Of a DNA stretch of 30,934 nt, positions 23,727 through 29,281 are shown one piece after another. Below the pieces are notes generated by a model. It was not told the DNA's origin and made no database searches. It was given only the letters and a program-made list of their open reading frames with translations. The stretch comes from a virus (Duplodnaviria > Heunggongvirae > Uroviricota > Caudoviricetes): the IMG/VR virus record IMGVR_UViG_2526164634_000026; one strand, given 5' to 3'. How positions within the stretch are numbered: position 1 is the first letter of the stretch; every line of letters begins with the position of its first letter. A program made the translations under genes and the position numbers.

Positions 23727-23921
23727 TCATCCATCATCACTTTGGATTGATGTATATGCTCTCTTTTCTGACGTTAGTCTCCGACGGCAGGCTTCAATGA
23801 CCCAGGCTGAGAAATTCCCAGACCCTTTTTGCTCAAGAGCGATGTTAATTTGTTCAATCATTTGGTTAGGAAAGCGGATGTTGCGGGTTGTTTTTCTGCG
23901 GGTTCTGTTCTTCGTTGACAT
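23727..23921 (-). CDS. YlcI-like small protein (DUF3950)
   Basis: 64-aa ORF resembling cryptic-prophage YlcI (…NIRFPNQMIEQINIALEQKGSGNFSAWVIEACRRRL…), from memory. Confidence 0.55.
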   Translation of the reverse strand: MSTKNRTRRKTTRNIRFPNQMIEQINIALEQKGSGNFSAWVIEACRRRLTSEKRAYTSIQSDDG

Positions 23922-24120
23922 GAGGTTGCCCCGTATTCAGTGTCGCTGATTTGTATTGTCTGAAGTTGTTTTTACGTTAAGTTGATGCAGATCAATTAAT
24001 ACGATACCTGCGTCATAATTAATTATTTGACGTGGTTTGATGGCGTAGATGCACGTTGTGACATGTAGATGATAATTATTATCATTTTGCGGGTCCTTTC
24101 CGGCGATCCGACAGGTTACG

Positions 24121-24132
24121 GGGCGGCGACCT
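24121..24132. other. cos: cosN (12-nt cohesive-end sequence GGGCGGCGACCT), with lambda cosQ-side sequence upstream
   Basis: Exact lambda left-end start GGGCGGCGACCTCGCGGGTTTTCGCTATTTATGAAAATTTTCCGG preceded by lambda right-end sequence …CCGGCGATCCGACAGGTTACG. Confidence 0.85.
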
Positions 24133-24169
24133 CGCGGGTTTTCGCTATTTATGAAAATTTTCCGGGATC

Positions 24170-24268
24170 CATGTCCGGTTTCTCTGCAAGTTAACTATAT
24201 GAAAAATATAAAAACAGGCTGTCCGTGAACCGGACATGTGCAAAAAACGGACATGTAAACCGGACATG
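24170..24268. repeat. cosB-like array: CGGACATG repeated three times directly and once inverted, with an AT-rich spacer (possible IHF site)
   Basis: catgtccg 24170-24177 (inverted); cggacatg 24231-24238, 24249-24256, 24261-24268; diverges from lambda cosB (CGTTTCC R sites). Confidence 0.5.
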
Positions 24269-24315
24269 ACCGGTTTTGTTGTGATTGTGAGGTGAGAGTT
24301 TTTGCGAGGTGAGGA

Positions 24316-24510
24316 GTGGCTACGCAGACTGAAGTTGCCAGGCATTTAAGTCTGACCGATCGCCAGCTTCGCAGATTGCAGAAATTGCCGGGTGCCCCGA
24401 TATCGAATAAGCGAGGGCAACTGGATCTGGATGCCTGGCGCGATTTTTACATATCGTATCTGAGGAGAAGTAAAAACGATGTGCCTGATGGCGATAGCGA
24501 AGACGACTAA
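24316..24510 (+). pseudogene. Terminase small-subunit (Nu1/Noh-like) N-terminal fragment, 64 codons, GTG start
   Basis: HTH-like N-terminus (EVARHLSLTDRQLRRLQKLPGAPIS) directly downstream of cosB; far shorter than Nu1-type proteins. Confidence 0.5.
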
Positions 24511-24588
24511 AGCGCGCAAAATCATTTGATACCGTTTTGAATTTTTTTGGATACCACCCAAAACGGCACAACGAAAAATTATTTGATA

Positions 24589-25326
24589 CTAATCGGGAGT
24601 GCTTTTAGGGTATGGTTGAACCCTGAATAGCTTAGTATTTAGCCGCTTCCTTGCTCGCTTGTTCAGGAACCTGATGTAGCGATACTGATTAAATTTGTGC
24701 ACCACGGCACGCTCTTTATTAGCCCGTAAATACACGCCTCGTTGTCCACCTCGCTTAATCGCGTTCATCGTTATCTCGTGATACCACTCACCATCCAGCT
24801 CGTAGAACGTGCTTTCATGGCTGCCAATAAAATCAAAATTCGACGCCTGATACACAACGCCTGCGCGTCCGCAGCGTTCGTCAGCAAAGGACTGAACCCA
24901 CTCCACTGACGGATACAGTAACCTTATGGTTTTCAGTGCATAACTGATGGCCCGAGATTCAGAGTTGCGGGGCATGTTGTCGTGTAGCCACATGCGGTTC
25001 AACTCCATATAGCCCCGGTTATCCGTTTCAAGCACGACACGACGACCTGAGTTGGGGTTAAGGGCATATCCCCACTGGAGAACGCCAACCAGATCGCGTC
25101 CGCTGAATACTCCCAGGTGGAGGTAAGAGTTATTCACAAAACGGCGGGAATAGTGCTTTGTCTGAATAATTGTGCGGGCCAGCCAGCAGGATATGGTTTC
25201 AACGCGCAGCTCCTTTGAACCATAGCCAACAATCTGGCCTTCATACTCAATAACGCACGGTTTCGTCAGAATGCGTGATTTTTTCTCTTTTCCCACAATG
25301 TTTCTCCGTGGGATGCTCGCAGGCAT
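24589..25326 (-). CDS. mom: Mom DNA-modification protein (Mu-type); start codon uncertain
   Basis: 245-aa track ORF overlapping the com 3' end, recognised as Mu Mom from memory. Confidence 0.75.
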
Positions 25327-25435
25327 TCAGCATTATGATGTGACGTTTGCAACGCGGACACCTGATTTCAATGTGATCAAAGGAATCCGCCTTAAATAAC
25401 AGTTTGTTGCAGTTTTTACAGCGAATTGATTTCAT
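25247..25435 (-). CDS. com: Com zinc-finger translational activator of mom (Mu-type)
   Basis: 62-aa [44 protein letters not shown]…; C4 zinc finger; GGAG Shine-Dalgarno. Confidence 0.8.
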
Positions 25436-25509
25436 CTCACCTCCTTTGCATCAATTCGCCACTATCTTAAAAAACATCATGGGTTGAGTGTGGTTATTGA
25501 GACATAATC

Positions 25510-25544
25510 GATCTGTATTACCGATCGATTTGATTGATTCGATC
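25510..25544. promoter_or_regulatory. Cluster of three GATC (Dam) sites upstream of com-mom
   Basis: GATC at 25510-25513, 25523-25526, 25541-25544; in Mu, Dam methylation of such a cluster relieves OxyR repression of the mom promoter. Confidence 0.5.
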
Positions 25545-26111
25545 GTCGTTTTCTATATGCGTTCGTTTCGCGGGGTGTTTTTTATACAGAGTTGACAGGG
25601 CCACATCGTAGATCAATGCAACCTGCTTGCGGGGGATTCCTTGTGCTAATAAACGCCCGGCCTGCTCCCATTCCGCTTTGGTTAGTTTAGGTGGTCGCCC
25701 ACCAATACGGCCTTTATTTCTGGCGGCAGCAAGTCCAGCCATCGTTCGCTCGATGATTAGTTCTCGTTCCATCTCAGCCAGGGCACCCATAACGTGGAAG
25801 AAAAAACGCCCCATTGGAGATGACGTATCAATACTGTCAGTAAGACTGCGAAAATTAATCCCTCGCTCTCGTAATTCCCCTACGAGAGAAATCAAATGTT
25901 TCATGCTTCGCCCGAGGCGATCCAGTTTCCAGACAACAAGTGTGTCACCTTTTTGAAGGCGCTTTAAAGCGCGTTTTAATCCAGGTCTGTCTGTCCTTGT
26001 TCCGCTTAATTTATCTTCAAATATTTGTTCACATCCTGCACAAACAAGAGCGTTTCGTTGCAGGTCTGTATTCTGGTCATTTGTTGATACCCTTACATAG
26101 CCAATCAGCAC
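25518..26111 (-). CDS. gin: Serine DNA invertase Gin (Gin/Pin/Hin/Cin family), GTG start
   Basis: 197-aa ORF MLIGYVRVSTNDQNTDLQRNALVCAGCEQIFEDKLSGTRTDRPGLKRALKRLQKGDTLVVWKLDRLGRS…; catalytic Ser in YVRVSTNDQ. Confidence 0.9.
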   Translation of the reverse strand: MLIGYVRVSTNDQNTDLQRNALVCAGCEQIFEDKLSGTRTDRPGLKRALKRLQKGDTLVVWKLDRLGRSMKHLISLVGELRERGINFRSLTDSIDTSSPMGRFFFHVMGALAEMERELIIERTMAGLAAARNKGRIGGRPPKLTKAEWEQAGRLLAQGIPRKQVALIYDVALSTLYKKHPAKRTHIENDDRINQIDR

Positions 26112-26190
26112 TCTGGATCTCCCGTTTAAAAGCGCAAATCATGCCATGCAGGCCGGAAACAGCCATTATCTAAAACCTCGGTTTACAGGA
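25772..26190. repeat. Left arm of about 420-bp inverted repeat (gix site plus the 5' half of gin)
   Basis: Reverse complement matches 29256-29676 at high identity. Confidence 0.75.
26165..26190. other. gix: gix-type recombination crossover site (left)
   Basis: TTATCTAAAACCTCGGTTTACAGGAA matches the Gin/Hin-family 26-bp site pattern. Confidence 0.75.
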
Positions 26191-26236
26191 AACGGTAAAC
26201 AAGGCTGGTAACGCTGTTCAAAAGACAGGCGATACC

Positions 26237-27217
26237 TTGTCCGGTGGACTTACTTTTGAAAACGACTCAATCCTTGCCTGGATTCGAAATACTGACTGGG
26301 CGAAGATTGGTTTTAAAAATGATGCCGACAGCGACACTGATTCATACATGTGGTTTGAAACAGGCGACAACGGCAATGAATATTTCAAATGGAGAAGCAA
26401 ACAAAGCACCACAACAAAAGACCTGATGAATCTTAAATGGGATGCTTTGTCTGTTCTTGTTAAAGCCCTTTTCAGCAGTGAAGTAAAAATATCGACAGTC
26501 AATGCACTGAGGATATTTAATTCATCTTTTGGTGCCATTTTTCGCCGTTCTGAAGAATGCCTGCATATCATCCCTACACGAGAGAACGAGGGAGAAAATG
26601 GTGATATAGGGCCACTACGCCCCTTTACGCTTAATCTCAGAACTGGTCGGATAAGCATGGGGCATGGTCTGGATGTTACAGGAGATATAACAACTAACGC
26701 CTGGGTTTATGCAAACAGGTTTGCTATTAACAGCAGTAATGGTATGTGGATTCAGATGCGCGATAACAACGCTATCTTTGGGAAAAATATAGTTAACACT
26801 GATAGCGCCCAGGCATTGCTACGTCAGGACCATGCTGATCGCAAATTTATGATTGGTGGTCTGGGTAATAAGCAATTTGGCATCTACATGATTAATAATT
26901 CAAGGACAGCCAATGGCACCGATGGTCAGGCGTACATGGATAATAACGGAAACTGGCTTTGCGGTGCGCAAGTTATTCCCGGCAACTATGGCAATTTTGA
27001 TTCCAGATATGTGAAAGATGTTCGACTTGGTTCACAGCAATATTATGGAGTGAACAACTGGCAAACATGGAATTTCCAGTGCCCGTCAGGTCATGTATTG
27101 TCTGGTATTAATGTTCAGGATACAGGGTCCAACTCTGCCGATAATATAGCGGGCGTTTATTACAGACCCGTTCAAAAGTATATAAATGGCACCTGGTATA
27201 ATGTAGCGAGCGTTTAA
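26237..27217 (+). CDS. Tail-fibre variable C-terminal exon A (S-variable type); frame open from 26198, no constant-part exon upstream
   Basis: 326-aa track ORF (TTG start); ends …[11 protein letters not shown]; in-frame stop at 26195-26197 just after gix. Confidence 0.65.
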
Positions 27218-27218
27218 T

Positions 27219-27746
27219 ATGATGCACTTAAAGAACATAAAAGCGGGTAACGCTAAAACACTGGAACAGTATGAGTTAACAAAGAAACACGGAGTTATCT
27301 GGCTTTACTCTGAGGACGGAAAAAACTGGTATGAGGAAGTGAAAAACTTTCAGCCAGACACAATAAAGATTGTTTACGATGCAAATAATATTATTGTCGC
27401 CATCACTAAAGATGCCTCCACGCTTAACCCTGAAGGTTTTAGCGTCGTTGAGGTTCCCGATATAACAGCCAACCGCCGCGCTGATGATTCAGGAAAGTGG
27501 ATGTTTAAGGATGGAGCTGTAGTTAAACGGATTTATACAGCAGACGAACAGCAACAACAGGCCGAATCACAAAAGGCCGTATTGCTTTCCGAAGCTGAAT
27601 CAGTCATCCAGCCGCTGGAACGCGCTGTCAGGCTGAATATGGCAACAGACGAGGAACGCACACGACTGGAAGCATGGGAACGCTACAGTGTTCTGGTCAG
27701 CCGTGTGGATACGGCAAATCCTGAATGGCCACAAAAGCCTGAATAA
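27219..27746 (+). CDS. Tail-fibre assembly chaperone (Mu U-type)
   Basis: 175-aa [43 protein letters not shown]…. Confidence 0.8.
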
Positions 27747-27751
27747 AAATT

Positions 27752-27771
27752 AAGGCCCGCTATCGGGCCTT
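27752..27771. terminator. Bidirectional hairpin between the convergent chaperone genes at the centre of the invertible segment
   Basis: 8-bp stem AAGGCCCG/CGGGCCTT, 4-nt loop, A/T runs on both sides. Confidence 0.55.
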
Positions 27772-27774
27772 GTC

Positions 27775-28308
27775 TCATTCAGGTTGTTCGGGAAATGTTA
27801 CTGGCAGGCTGGAGGTGTCTGTAGATTCGACTTTCTGCGCATAGAGCATCCACTCAGTTAATTTTTGTTTATTCTCGTCGGAAATGATGCCCAGCCGTAG
27901 CTGTGAGTCCCATAGCTGGGTTTTATCCCTGACAAGTTGCAACAGGCTTTGCTTTTCATTCTCTGCCTGCTGCCTCTGTTCCTCCTCGGTATAAGTTCGC
28001 TTTATCACTACGCCATCTTTGAACATCCATTTACCCGAAATATCAGCCCGGCGATTTGCTGTAATATCAGGAACCTCAACGACGCTTGCGCCTTCTGGAT
28101 TAATTGCTGAAACATCCTTTTCAATACAAATAATAACGTTGTTGTGGTCATAGACCATTTTCAACGTATCAGGCTGAAAGTTCTTTTGTTCCTCATACCA
28201 GTTTTTCCCATCCTCTGTATAAAGCCATTTGATGTTAAATTGTTTCGTTAGCTGGTATTGCTCTTTTGTTTTAGGATTGCCAGCAGTAATATTTTTTAAG
28301 TGCATCAT
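27775..28308 (-). CDS. Alternative tail-fibre assembly chaperone (Mu U'-type)
   Basis: 177-aa ORF; N-terminal about 100 aa closely similar to the chaperone at 27219, C-terminus diverged. Confidence 0.8.
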
Positions 28309-28310
28309 AA

Positions 28311-29054
28311 TTAAATACTCCCTGCGTTATACCACGTTCCATTAATGCAATACTGAATTGGCCTTGCCTGAGTTGTATCAATTAATTCATCACGGTTTCC
28401 GTTAACTGAACCAGTAACGACATAACCTGACCTGTCAGACCAGCCAGGACCATTCCATGTCTGAACAGATGACAGACCGCCAAGGCGAATACCTGTAATA
28501 AACCTTGAGTTACATTCTGCCTGCGTATATGCACCAACATCTCCCGCAGAGGGTTTGCGTGTTGTGGTGTAAAACTCTGACCAGTTAGCTTCAAAGCCAT
28601 AACCATCACGCGCTGAACGATAAAAGATACCGCCATTTCTGTAATTCACGCGGAACTGTACAGCAGGGCAACTCCCCGCATTCATATTAAAGTGGAGGAT
28701 TAATGTCGATGCGCCACTGATATCTGCATTATAAACGCCGCTATTCCAGTTCCATCCAACAGCTTTGTCATTTCCAACAGTGCTTCCTGTCTGCCCTAAA
28801 GCAAATGCAGGCTGCTGGTTTTTCGTGTTGTAGTCTCGTCGCCAGCCAGGAGCATAAGCATCACCATGATTAATATAGGTGAATTGAGCGTTAGTAATTC
28901 CGCCACCGCTGGATGTACTCGGCGTAGTAACGCGTATGGTCATTGCGCCGCGAGTGCCAATAACTTCCACCACAGCACCTGCAAGACAAATATTTCCGCA
29001 ACCTGTATCTGTAATGACCTTATTGTTTGCATAAGCCCATGAGCCTTTGCACAT
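28311..29054 (-). CDS. Tail-fibre variable C-terminal exon B (S'-variable type); frame open upstream to a stop inside gix (29274-29276)
   Basis: 247-aa track ORF; ends …[11 protein letters not shown] like exon A; hand translation shows the open frame continues to the gix site. Confidence 0.65.
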
Positions 29055-29255
29055 CCAGTAAGGATGGTTAAATGCCCCCTGACTCTCCAGCCACGAAATG
29101 AATTGTGCGGTTGTCCAGGTCTGACTATCGCCACCAATATTCAGCCATGCGCTATATGCGCGGCAGGCACCAATATTTTTGGTGAAGGTATCTTTTCCTG
29201 GAATATCTGCGCCGTTCTGTTTTTTCTGTAATGCACCAGAAGCCTGATTTACCGT

Positions 29256-29281
29256 TTCCTGTAAACCGAGGTTTTAGATAA
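29256..29281. other. gix: gix-type recombination crossover site (right, inverted)
   Basis: TTCCTGTAAACCGAGGTTTTAGATAA, inverted copy of the left site. Confidence 0.75.

Follow-up and report, generated by a model that had tools for sequence, protein, structure and literature searches.

The locus raises the question of whether a Mu-type com-mom operon lying next to a lambdoid terminase gene was recruited by a lambdoid prophage as a DNA-modification module or marks the end of a Mu-like phage that transposed there. In the window, which is the whole stretch of 30,934 nucleotides that was analysed, the features that meet at this boundary are as follows.

24316-24510, plus strand: remnant of a lambdoid terminase small-subunit (Nu1-type) gene, its first 64 codons, with a TAA stop (24508-24510) contributed by the inserted phage end
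Missing from the window: the 3' part of the terminase gene, sequence …TATGAGGAGAAATTGC
24508-24604, minus strand: Mu-type right end (attR) of a variant Mu-like lineage, with its terminus at 24508, reading …GCGCGCTTTA-3' on the phage strand
24525-24533, 24547-24555 and 24582-24590, minus strand: three TTTGATAC-type direct repeats, 22 and 35 bp apart from start to start, putative transposase-binding sites
24589-25296, minus strand: mom, with a GTG start as in Mu, 235 amino acids, predicted tRNA(Gly)-dependent adenine N6-modifying enzyme
25247-25435, minus strand: com, overlapping mom, 62 amino acids, predicted zinc-ribbon translational activator of mom
25518-26111, minus strand: gin-type serine DNA invertase, 197 amino acids (Pfam Resolvase and HTH_7), its DNA 97% identical to the Mu gin region

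The sequence-only reading had placed mom and com directly after the terminase remnant and convergent with it across a 78-bp spacer, an arrangement that the coordinates bear out (the gap is 24511-24588). Intact genes annotated as "terminase small subunit" (169 amino acids) matched the window at 100% over 24250-24509 and diverged beyond, and the gene is interrupted after codon 64 at the very nucleotide that forms the terminus of a Mu-like phage. Because this cut falls in the terminase small-subunit gene, the lambdoid prophage is dead for packaging. The DNA immediately upstream of the remnant contains a lambda-type cos sequence and repeated copies of CCGGACATG. The junction between the Nu1 remnant and attR was common to six independent draft assemblies and was seen in draft assemblies only, with no occurrence among 5,426 complete E. 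coli genomes in RefSeq.

To the other side of this junction, DNA homology to vB_YpM_5 and to the complete Mu-like prophage of FDAARGOS_1059 begins at 24507/24508. The exact breakpoint that the earlier reading had proposed to find by alignment is therefore the start of a Mu-like phage end at 24508. We compared ten loci encoding the identical Mom protein, all of which read …GCGCGCTTTA and then pass into unrelated flanks, including an EAL-domain gene, nrfA, glpT, the ppsA region, ppx and, here, the Nu1 remnant. Divergence after the same nucleotide in 10 of 10 independent flanks is the fixed terminus of a Mu-type end. Because the ten contexts stop at 24508 and the stop codon of the terminase remnant comes from the phage end, these findings argue for Mu-type transposition and contradict the proposal that the operon was a recruited module rather than a Mu insertion. 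We put a probability of about 0.9 on the reading that positions 24508-26206 are the right-terminal 1.7 kb of a Mu-like prophage, which transposed Mu-style into a resident lambdoid prophage and landed in its terminase small-subunit gene.

That com-mom is instead a cassette captured by the lambdoid prophage through illegitimate recombination, independently of Mu transposition, could draw on the direct contact of mom with lambdoid cos and the Nu1 remnant and on a window that holds neither a canonical Mu end nor the activator C. We consider such a capture very improbable. The boundary matches, to the nucleotide, the terminus at nine other unrelated insertion sites, and an essential lambdoid packaging gene was destroyed at codon 64, as opposed to the use of a moron slot. 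Lambdoid phage records found in our phage search matched only the cos and Nu1 part of the query and not mom, com or gin, which, like the missing junction in complete E. coli genomes, speaks against an operon carried by lambdoid phages. The other flank is Mu gin with an invertible segment of Mu/P2 type and not lambdoid DNA. Beyond com come gin and the invertible segment, in the order found in Mu, so the block is a whole Mu right end and not an isolated com-mom cassette.

The earlier failure to recognise a canonical Mu right end beside mom was also reproduced: the canonical Mu right-end sequence, aligned to the region, gave no match, and homology to Mu ends at 24605. The canonical end is missing because the terminal ~100 bp of this lineage are unrelated in sequence to those of Mu. 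In their place, the variant attR consists of the 78-bp gap between mom and the terminase remnant together with the last few mom codons, and all three TTTGATAC repeats lie inside the last 85 bp of the phage end. Left ends of relatives carry three copies of this motif, one at the tip and two ~100-150 bp further in, a Mu-like spacing, so that the putative sites appear to form a right-end cluster with left-end counterparts. Complete prophages of the lineage carry a matching left end, TATAGAGAGGTAAATCATTTGAT, and the left end of the lineage has the sequence TATAGAGAGGTAAAT…. The terminal 5'-TG…CA-3' of Mu was absent, both ends of the lineage starting with 5'-TA (5'-TA…TA-3'). The flanks of two complete simple insertions, both in relatives, show an apparent target duplication of 4 bp (AGCC in glpT and CGCG in ppsR) versus 5 bp for Mu, the left end of the window's own copy lying outside the window. 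With these TA termini and the apparent 4-bp duplication in mind, Mu-type transposition chemistry is assumed for the lineage.

The element itself is already known: mom, com and gin form a textbook right end of Mu, and their proteins occur identically in RefSeq (Mom and Com of the lineage as WP_001111708.1 and WP_001300256.1). Gene order and orientation (G segment, gin, com, mom, attR) are those of the Mu right end. Over the Mu-like block, DNA identity was 97.3% to Mu, 98.8% to vB_YpM_5 and 99.8% to the prophage of E. coli O111:H2 12A. Relative to Mu, the Gin region is 97% identical in DNA, Mom is 99% identical and Com is the same, and the three GATC sites, the C dyad, the -35 and -10 elements at 19-bp spacing, the Com target and the inhibitory stem-loop are all kept. 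Unlike in Mu, the last ~97 bp (attR) are unrelated to R1-R3 and end in TA versus CA, Mom has four additional C-terminal residues, Gin has four additional residues that read through a GATC site, and the centre of the C dyad has two C>T changes.

The closest relatives are Mu-like phages of the vB_YpM_5 type, a group made up of Yersinia phages vB_YpM_5/6 (PMC10434027) and the E. coli prophages in WS1933D, FDAARGOS_1059 and O111:H2 12A. They match the window at 98.8-99.8% over the whole of 24508-26206, including the variant attR and its terminus, with the same Mom and Com. In these relatives, unlike in the window, the element is complete at 37 kb and includes c, ner, transposase, B, Mor, C and Mu-type tail genes; the one in WS1933D splits glpT and carries the matching left end. 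Their C protein is identical to Mu C at 139 of 140 positions. The transposase, of 697 amino acids, shares ~25% identity with MuA, the C-terminal 30 amino acids being the same in both. As judged from these alignments, the lineage reads as a natural mosaic, with 97-99% identity to Mu in the late genes, C, gin, com and mom but a different transposase and different ends.

Both genes of the operon are well conserved. The mom open reading frame is intact over 24589-25326 on the minus strand, with the Mu-equivalent GTG start at 25296, and its product belongs to the Mom/GNAT-like family (Pfam Mom, PF25680, E=3.6e-75). Mom is identical to Mu Mom at 228 of 231 residues, differing by D107N, V123T and K225R (231-amino-acid numbering), and its extra 4 residues at the C terminus are encoded by the variant phage end. 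All of the catalytic residues defined previously (PMC13219725), namely, H58, Y59, R111, S124, D149, R151 and Y159 in 241-amino-acid numbering, are unchanged. The com nucleotide sequence is identical to that of Mu (Pfam Zn_ribbon_Com, E=2.7e-9), and from the com ATG to the first 60 nucleotides of mom the DNA does not differ from Mu. The overlap contains two RNA elements, whose functions are taken from the Mu literature.

25313-25326, minus strand: Com target hairpin AUGC-CUGCGA-GCAU, 100% identical to Mu
25292-25312, minus strand: translation-inhibiting stem-loop CCCAC…GUGGG, containing the mom Shine-Dalgarno sequence and GUG start, 100% identical to Mu

Folding of the com-mom overlap predicted both hairpins in the minimum-energy structure, and RNA binding is a prediction. 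The fold was not significant (z-score, -0.62) and adds nothing beyond the identity to Mu, and an Rfam scan of 23900-26400 returned one chance-level match only (E=0.92).

Upstream of com, the regulatory region also follows Mu.

25464-25507, minus strand: mom promoter core, with -10 TAAGAT (25464-25469) and a 19-nucleotide spacer with a T run
25489-25494, minus strand: -35-like ACCACA of the mom promoter
25494-25507, minus strand: C-activator dyad TTAT-N6-ATAA, both arms intact
25510, 25523 and 25541 (span 25510-25544), unstranded: three Dam (GATC) sites in the OxyR-binding region of the mom promoter, overlapping the 3' end of gin

The Mu-type com-mom operon with a Dam/OxyR-type promoter, and the three GATC sites within 35 bp upstream of com, had both been noticed from the sequence, and both hold: ~120 bp upstream of com differ from Mu by 3 nucleotides, and each GATC site aligns with one of the three in Mu. 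The window has 77 GATC sites, and no others form such a triple; by chance alone the triple would be only mildly improbable, and the homology to Mu settles its identity. Two CGATCG sites 18 bp apart agree with the PvuI fragments of the Mu mom promoter (PMC3378877). The elements of a C-dependent promoter have been defined as a dyad near -43.5, an ACCACA -35, a 19-bp spacer and a TAAGAT -10 (PMC2582627; also PMC3378877), and by alignment with Mu the mom promoter has all of them. In the promoter core, the two C>T substitutions in the dyad centre were the only differences from Mu and are shared by the Mu-like relatives. A sigma-70 promoter scan detected nothing, which is consistent with an activator-dependent promoter of 19-bp spacing but uninformative.

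Given this near-identity, we infer that this intact mom operon should function in the same way as that of Mu, for which the regulatory logic and enzyme chemistry have been described (PMC3378877, PMC2582627, PMC13219725). OxyR bound to the three GATC sites would block mom transcription unless Dam methylates those sites, and the weak promoter with its 19-bp spacing would fire only when the late activator C binds the TTAT-N6-ATAA dyad. Com would then bind the hairpin just 5' of the mom start and open the stem-loop, exposing the otherwise hidden ribosome-binding site and GUG of mom. The enzyme Mom would move glycine from Gly-tRNA(Gly) onto adenine N6 in double-stranded DNA, and the glycine adduct would rearrange to N6-carbamoylmethyl-adenine, which would block many restriction enzymes.

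The activator that this scheme calls for was searched for in the window. In tblastn searches of the whole 30.9 kb, Mu C and Mor gave only hits with E>2 and no homologue, in agreement with the earlier remark that no C gene was visible. Searches with Mu A, B, c and Ner found none of these genes in the window, the sole match being the endolysin to a lambdoid lysozyme, and a DDE transposase, a MuB-type ATPase and a repressor were likewise absent. The window thus contains no Mu late, early or C genes. Because it is without C, mom expression depends on the rest of the prophage or on another Mu-like prophage at some other site of the genome.

One reading of an operon without its activator is that the fragment has been kept as a "domesticated" orphan, which C from another Mu-like prophage, or some other activator, would switch on in trans and which would protect the DNA of co-resident phages or the host from restriction. 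Intact mom, com, promoter and gin, which over 1.7 kb differ at only 3 positions from a prophage that looks active, would fit such a role, as would a junction shared by several assemblies, which is therefore inherited, and the two copies of these ends in some related strains. However, near-identity to live phages indicates a recent insertion for which selection is not required, Mom expression is toxic (PMC3378877) and the window lacks an activator, and we regard retention for this purpose as improbable. A more elaborate version joins two proposals: that the lineage uses a noncanonical transposition, with TA termini, an apparent 4-bp duplication and a transposase ~25% identical to MuA that keeps the ClpX/MuB-interacting tail of Mu, and that the stranded right end is an orphan mom operon that C could fire in trans, giving restriction-resistant DNA to co-resident phages. 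As a joint proposition, it seems to us equally unlikely.

The insertion of a Mu-like right end into the terminase gene leaves the question of how far the Mu-like prophage extends, for which the DNA beyond gin is informative.

26166-29281, unstranded: invertible tail-fibre segment, with two variable fibre ends and two assembly-protein genes
26166-26191 and 29256-29281: gix-type inverted sites, identical over 26 bp, bounding the invertible segment
29336-29940, plus strand: second invertase gene, P2-prophage type, its frame broken by six single-base homopolymer indels (29673-29808)
29960-30454, minus strand: P2-like gpU (Pfam Phage_P2_GpU, E=1.9e-38)
Within 29960-30934, minus strand: 3' part of a P2-like tape-measure gene, running off the window

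A 307-nucleotide inverted repeat (25900-26206 and 29241-29547) spans the borders of the segment, which is identical to Mu-like prophages up to 28068 and is thereafter 3-4% divergent. Compared with the vB_YpM_5 type, only the right 1.7 kb and the invertible segment are contiguous in the window before P2-like DNA follows. The sequence-only reading had stated that a Mu end beside mom with Mu late genes beyond would make this simply a Mu prophage end; the attR is indeed beside mom, but P2-like DNA stands where the Mu late genes were to be sought. Positions 26166-30934 are collinear with, and ~96% identical to, P2-like E. coli prophages with a Pin/Cin-type invertase, sharing with them the variable fibre ends, two assembly genes, invertase, gpU and tape measure, and 29960-30934 is collinear with P2-like prophages L004 and L020. 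Unlike in these prophages, Mu-type gin-com-mom replaces the constant 5' part of the P2 tail-fibre gene, and the invertase frame is broken. Lambdoid, Mu-like and P2-like DNA, three prophage types, abut within 7 kb.

We found no near-identical P2-like parent, the best being 96.6% identical, and because of this the crossover from Mu-like to P2-like DNA is bracketed only to 28069-29281. The join is either a real recombination or an assembly chimera. For its mechanism, we considered both an invertase-mediated exchange at gix and a homologous exchange near 28.0 kb. If the passage into P2-like DNA is a chimera, the Mu-like prophage would be complete and mom would be the ordinary end of an inducible prophage with C in cis, a reading that competes only with the part of our explanation that makes this a stranded fragment and leaves its core untouched. 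The Mu-like and P2-like invertible segments are >96% identical and nearly the same in both over ~27.7-28.4 kb, and within this stretch, at 28248, lies the break of an older assembly that shares the junction. Most other assemblies break at a gix site or in the invertase repeat; the window's own contig, AIHD01000023.1 of assembly GCA_000250275.2, which matches the window at 100% across the compared positions 24401-30934, alone crosses the join and ends 1.6 kb later. In the entire collection, the broken allele of the second invertase was likewise found on this one contig, where six homopolymer indels in 136 bp are typical of low-quality consensus. On the other hand, the join is internally consistent, with intact and identical gix sites at both borders, prophage recombination through shared tail-fibre segments is biologically plausible and the window shows no direct sign of a misjoin. 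On balance, we hold a chimera to be a real contender, somewhat short of an even chance.

Whichever holds for the join, our preferred reading of a Mu-like right end transposed into a lambdoid terminase gene has little importance other than for correct annotation. Although intact, the mom operon relies on a C activator encoded nowhere nearby. Because their ends and transposase differ from those of Mu, Mu-like phages of this lineage will escape a search that uses the canonical Mu end. Should the assembly be correct, the shared invertible tail-fibre segment would be a recombination bridge between two prophages.

We examined the region beside mom and found a Mu-type right end (attR) of variant sequence, contradicting the proposal of the sequence-only reading that an anti-restriction module had been recruited into a lambdoid prophage rather than inserted with Mu. 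In megablast comparisons with phage records, 24605-26206 was 97% identical to Mu, D108, and SfMu, and the match to the Yersinia Mu-like phage vB_YpM_5 extended beyond that of Mu, to the phage terminus at 24508; a complete Mu-like prophage of E. coli FDAARGOS_1059 matched 24507-29281. Multiple alignment showed that TAAAGCGCGCAAAATCATTTGATAC… starts at one and the same nucleotide in the window and these two relatives and that the sequences outside it are unrelated, whereas the right end of Mu itself differs, consistent with the earlier remark that no canonical Mu end is visible beside mom. Furthermore, contigs encoding an identical Mom ORF provided 10 loci with 10 different neighbors, including an EAL-domain gene, nrfA, glpT, an SDR/hydrolase region, a ppsA region, ppx, and the terminase remnant (the Nu1 remnant), and all carried …GCGCGCTTTA followed by divergence. 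The variant end is rare, occurring in 11 of 5,426 complete E. coli genomes at 11 different sites. The features of the region are as follows.

24316-24510, plus strand: terminase small-subunit remnant, convergent with mom across a 78-bp gap
24589-25326, minus strand: mom ORF (ORF search)
25247-25435, minus strand: com ORF of 62 codons, overlapping the mom ORF (ORF search)
Downstream of TAAGAT, minus strand: com ribosome-binding site and ATG
25464-25469, minus strand: TAAGAT (alignment to Mu)
Between ACCACA and TAAGAT, minus strand: 19-nt spacer with a T run at its end
25489-25494, minus strand: ACCACA (alignment to Mu; PMC2582627)
25494-25507, minus strand: TTAT-N6-ATAA dyad, TTATGTCTCAATAA (alignment to Mu; PMC2582627)
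26166-26191 and 29256-29281: identical 26-bp gix-type sites, inverted
Between the gix-type sites (segment 26166-29281): two variable tail-fiber ends and two assembly-protein genes

The last 85 bp of the right end contain three direct TTTGATAC-type repeats (start-to-start distances of 22 and 35 bp), a motif of which the left ends of relatives also carry three copies. The 78-bp spacer side of mom thus has the architecture of Mu attR with a different sequence, and the repeats are putative transposase sites. At 24549, the middle repeat of the window reads TTGGATAC, and the other nine insertions and five further assemblies sharing the Nu1 junction all have TTTGATAC; the window sequence reflects either a substitution private to it or a sequencing error.

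The insertion interrupted the terminase gene. Window 24250-24509 was 100% identical to annotated, intact lambdoid-prophage terminase small-subunit genes (169 aa) before the sequences parted, with the intact gene reading …GACGACTATGAGGAG… and the window …GACGAC|TAAAGCGCGC…; the stop codon of the remnant consists of the three outermost bases of the phage. Upstream lie a lambda-type cos sequence and a lambdoid late region (Q, holin, lysozyme, and Rz). The packaging function of this prophage was therefore lost through the insertion. At 24118-24276, the cos sequence (GGGCGGCGACCTCGCGGGTTTTCGC…) precedes four copies of an (A)ACCGGACATG motif, of which one is inverted and three are direct; these are presumably the cosB sites, bound by the terminase small subunit of this lambdoid prophage. 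Six draft assemblies carry the identical Nu1-attR junction, and the search of complete RefSeq E. coli genomes found it in none. Contig AIHD01000023.1 (GCA_000250275.2) was 100% identical to the window over the compared stretch, 24401-30934, with the same endpoint.

The sequence-only reading had correctly placed mom and com next to the remnant and had correctly called them and their control region Mu-type. From the Mu-equivalent GTG start at 25296, Mom is a 235-aa protein identical to Mu Mom at 228 of 231 positions, with four additional C-terminal residues, and the stretch from the com ATG to nucleotide 60 of mom has the same DNA sequence as in Mu. The products matched Pfam families Mom (E=3.6e-75) and Zn_ribbon_Com (E=2.7e-9). 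All seven residues reported as essential or important for catalysis (H58, Y59, R111, S124, D149, R151, and Y159 in 241-aa numbering; PMC13219725) are retained, and the three substitutions relative to Mu fall outside them. Identical RefSeq proteins (WP_001111708.1 and WP_001300256.1) are listed in related prophages, and mom is annotated in other genomes as "protein mom" or "tRNA(Gly)-dependent adenine aminoacyltransferase Mom"; the element is of an already known kind. A com-like regulator is paired with a DNA-modifying enzyme other than Mom in E. coli PRO_A-1443-6M-A_ESBL, where a DNA methyltransferase gene at a P2-like prophage end has its start overlapped by a "Com family" zinc-ribbon gene (L004 20898-21846).

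Three GATC sites noted upstream of com (25510, 25523, and 25541) align with those of the Mu mom promoter; the window has 77 GATC sites, and no other three of them fall within 35 bp. On the minus strand, the order is the three GATC sites, dyad, ACCACA, 19-nt spacer, TAAGAT, ribosome-binding site, and ATG. These elements match descriptions of C binding to an imperfect dyad centered at -43.5 and overlapping ACCACA, with 19-bp spacing (PMC2582627), and of the toxic mom gene being controlled by Dam/OxyR, C, Com, and Fis (PMC3378877). Only 3 nt differ from Mu over ~120 bp, two of them in the dyad center and common to Mu-like relatives, including the isolated phage vB_YpM_5. A generic sigma-70 scan detected no promoter, as expected for this activator-dependent promoter. 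RNA folding predicted a hairpin, AUGC-CUGCGA-GCAU, and a stem-loop, CCCAC…GUGGG, enclosing the mom GGAG and GUG; by sequence identity, the Mu literature would assign these as the Com target and the translation-inhibiting structure, respectively. The gin stop codon, TAA in Mu, is CAA in the window (25518-25532), so Gin is four residues longer than in Mu, and its coding sequence runs through the middle GATC (25523-25526) and also the distal GATC of the mom control region.

The lineage carrying the variant end includes a complete 37-kb prophage that splits glpT in WS1933D. Besides the invertible segment, gin, com, and mom, this prophage has genes for lysis, head, and tail proteins, a repressor, a Ner-like protein, transposase, B, Mor, and C. 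Its left end (TATAGAGAGGTAAATCATTTGAT…) lies in register with its right end. The variant end agrees with what the proteins of the lineage show: C is identical to Mu C at 139 of 140 positions, and C, Mom, Com, and Gin are 97-99% Mu-like, whereas the transposase (697 aa; L017 3380-5473, a locus with variant-lineage ends) is only 25% identical to MuA (Mu, L014 1328-3319). The lineage is therefore a mosaic with a swapped transposition module, and the last ~30 transposase residues (…DDEYETERDEYLNHSLDILEQNRRKKAI) are identical to those of Mu; the pattern points to a sharply bounded swap of transposase and ends.

Comparison of termini (window 24508-24533; L017 2192-2215 and 39345-39371; and two further loci, L019 ~1497 and L015 ~6001) showed both lineage ends to start with 5'-TA (TATAGAGAGG… and TAAAGCGCGC…) versus TG in Mu. 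Flanks of two simple insertions share only 4 bp (AGCC at glpT and CGCG at ppsR) versus the 5-bp duplication expected for Mu. These TA termini and apparent 4-bp duplication are only mildly unusual. On one side of the FDAARGOS_1059 prophage lies an SDR-family gene and on the other a ycjP-like permease gene, both truncated (L003 11514-12005; L016 3920-4102). Relative to the K-12 gene order, the genes between these two would be lacking, which would point to a deletion next to the prophage and not to a simple insertion.

Beyond gin, Mu-like homology stops at 29281 and P2-like prophage homology starts at 26166, positions that are the outer edges of the right and left gix-type sites, respectively; the P2-like match continues through a second invertase gene, gpU, and a tape-measure gene to the window end. 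The segment therefore lies between two invertase genes, which flank and face it and form a 307-nt inverted repeat with 95% identity (25900-26206/29241-29547); neither side of the segment has a constant tail-fiber 5' part. Thus, of the signs by which the earlier reading would have recognized a simple Mu prophage end, a transposon end does adjoin mom, albeit a variant one, and P2-like genes rather than Mu late genes lie beyond the gin-side segment. The window showed no differences from two Mu-like prophages over 26200-28068, then 3-4% divergence to 29281, versus a uniform 3-4% divergence from P2-like references over 28000-30934, placing a Mu-like/P2-like exchange between 28069 and 29281. It may have occurred by homologous recombination in a conserved assembly-protein gene stretch or at the gix site, and the segment would be a Mu-like/P2-like hybrid. 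The abutting of three prophage types is only mildly unusual. In GCA_000250235.2, which has the same Nu1 junction, the sequence beside gin (L013 3761-4848) matches window 28597-29690 at 87% identity, so that the opposite end is next to gin in a segment that is inverted and/or a different variant.

The join may be biological or an assembly chimera. Four observations speak for a possible chimera: only the window's own contig contains it, an older assembly breaks at 28248, most other assemblies break at the invertase repeat, and the second invertase gene has six single-base indels within 136 bp (29673-29808), all in homopolymer runs. In the public collection, the window's contig is the sole one with this frameshifted allele. 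These indels look like poor consensus rather than decay, probably reflecting low quality near the contig end and not a true pseudogene.

By analogy with Mu, GATC methylation by Dam would relieve OxyR repression, C would activate the mom promoter, Com would unmask the mom start, and Mom would modify adenine N6 in duplex DNA via Gly-tRNA(Gly) (PMC13219725). Within the window, mom, com, the promoter, and gin are intact, and C, as noted earlier, is absent, as are the repressor, Ner, transposase, B, and Mor. Should the hybrid join be real, mom would be stranded and silent unless C comes in trans; if the join is an artifact, the mom region would simply be the end of a complete Mu-like prophage.
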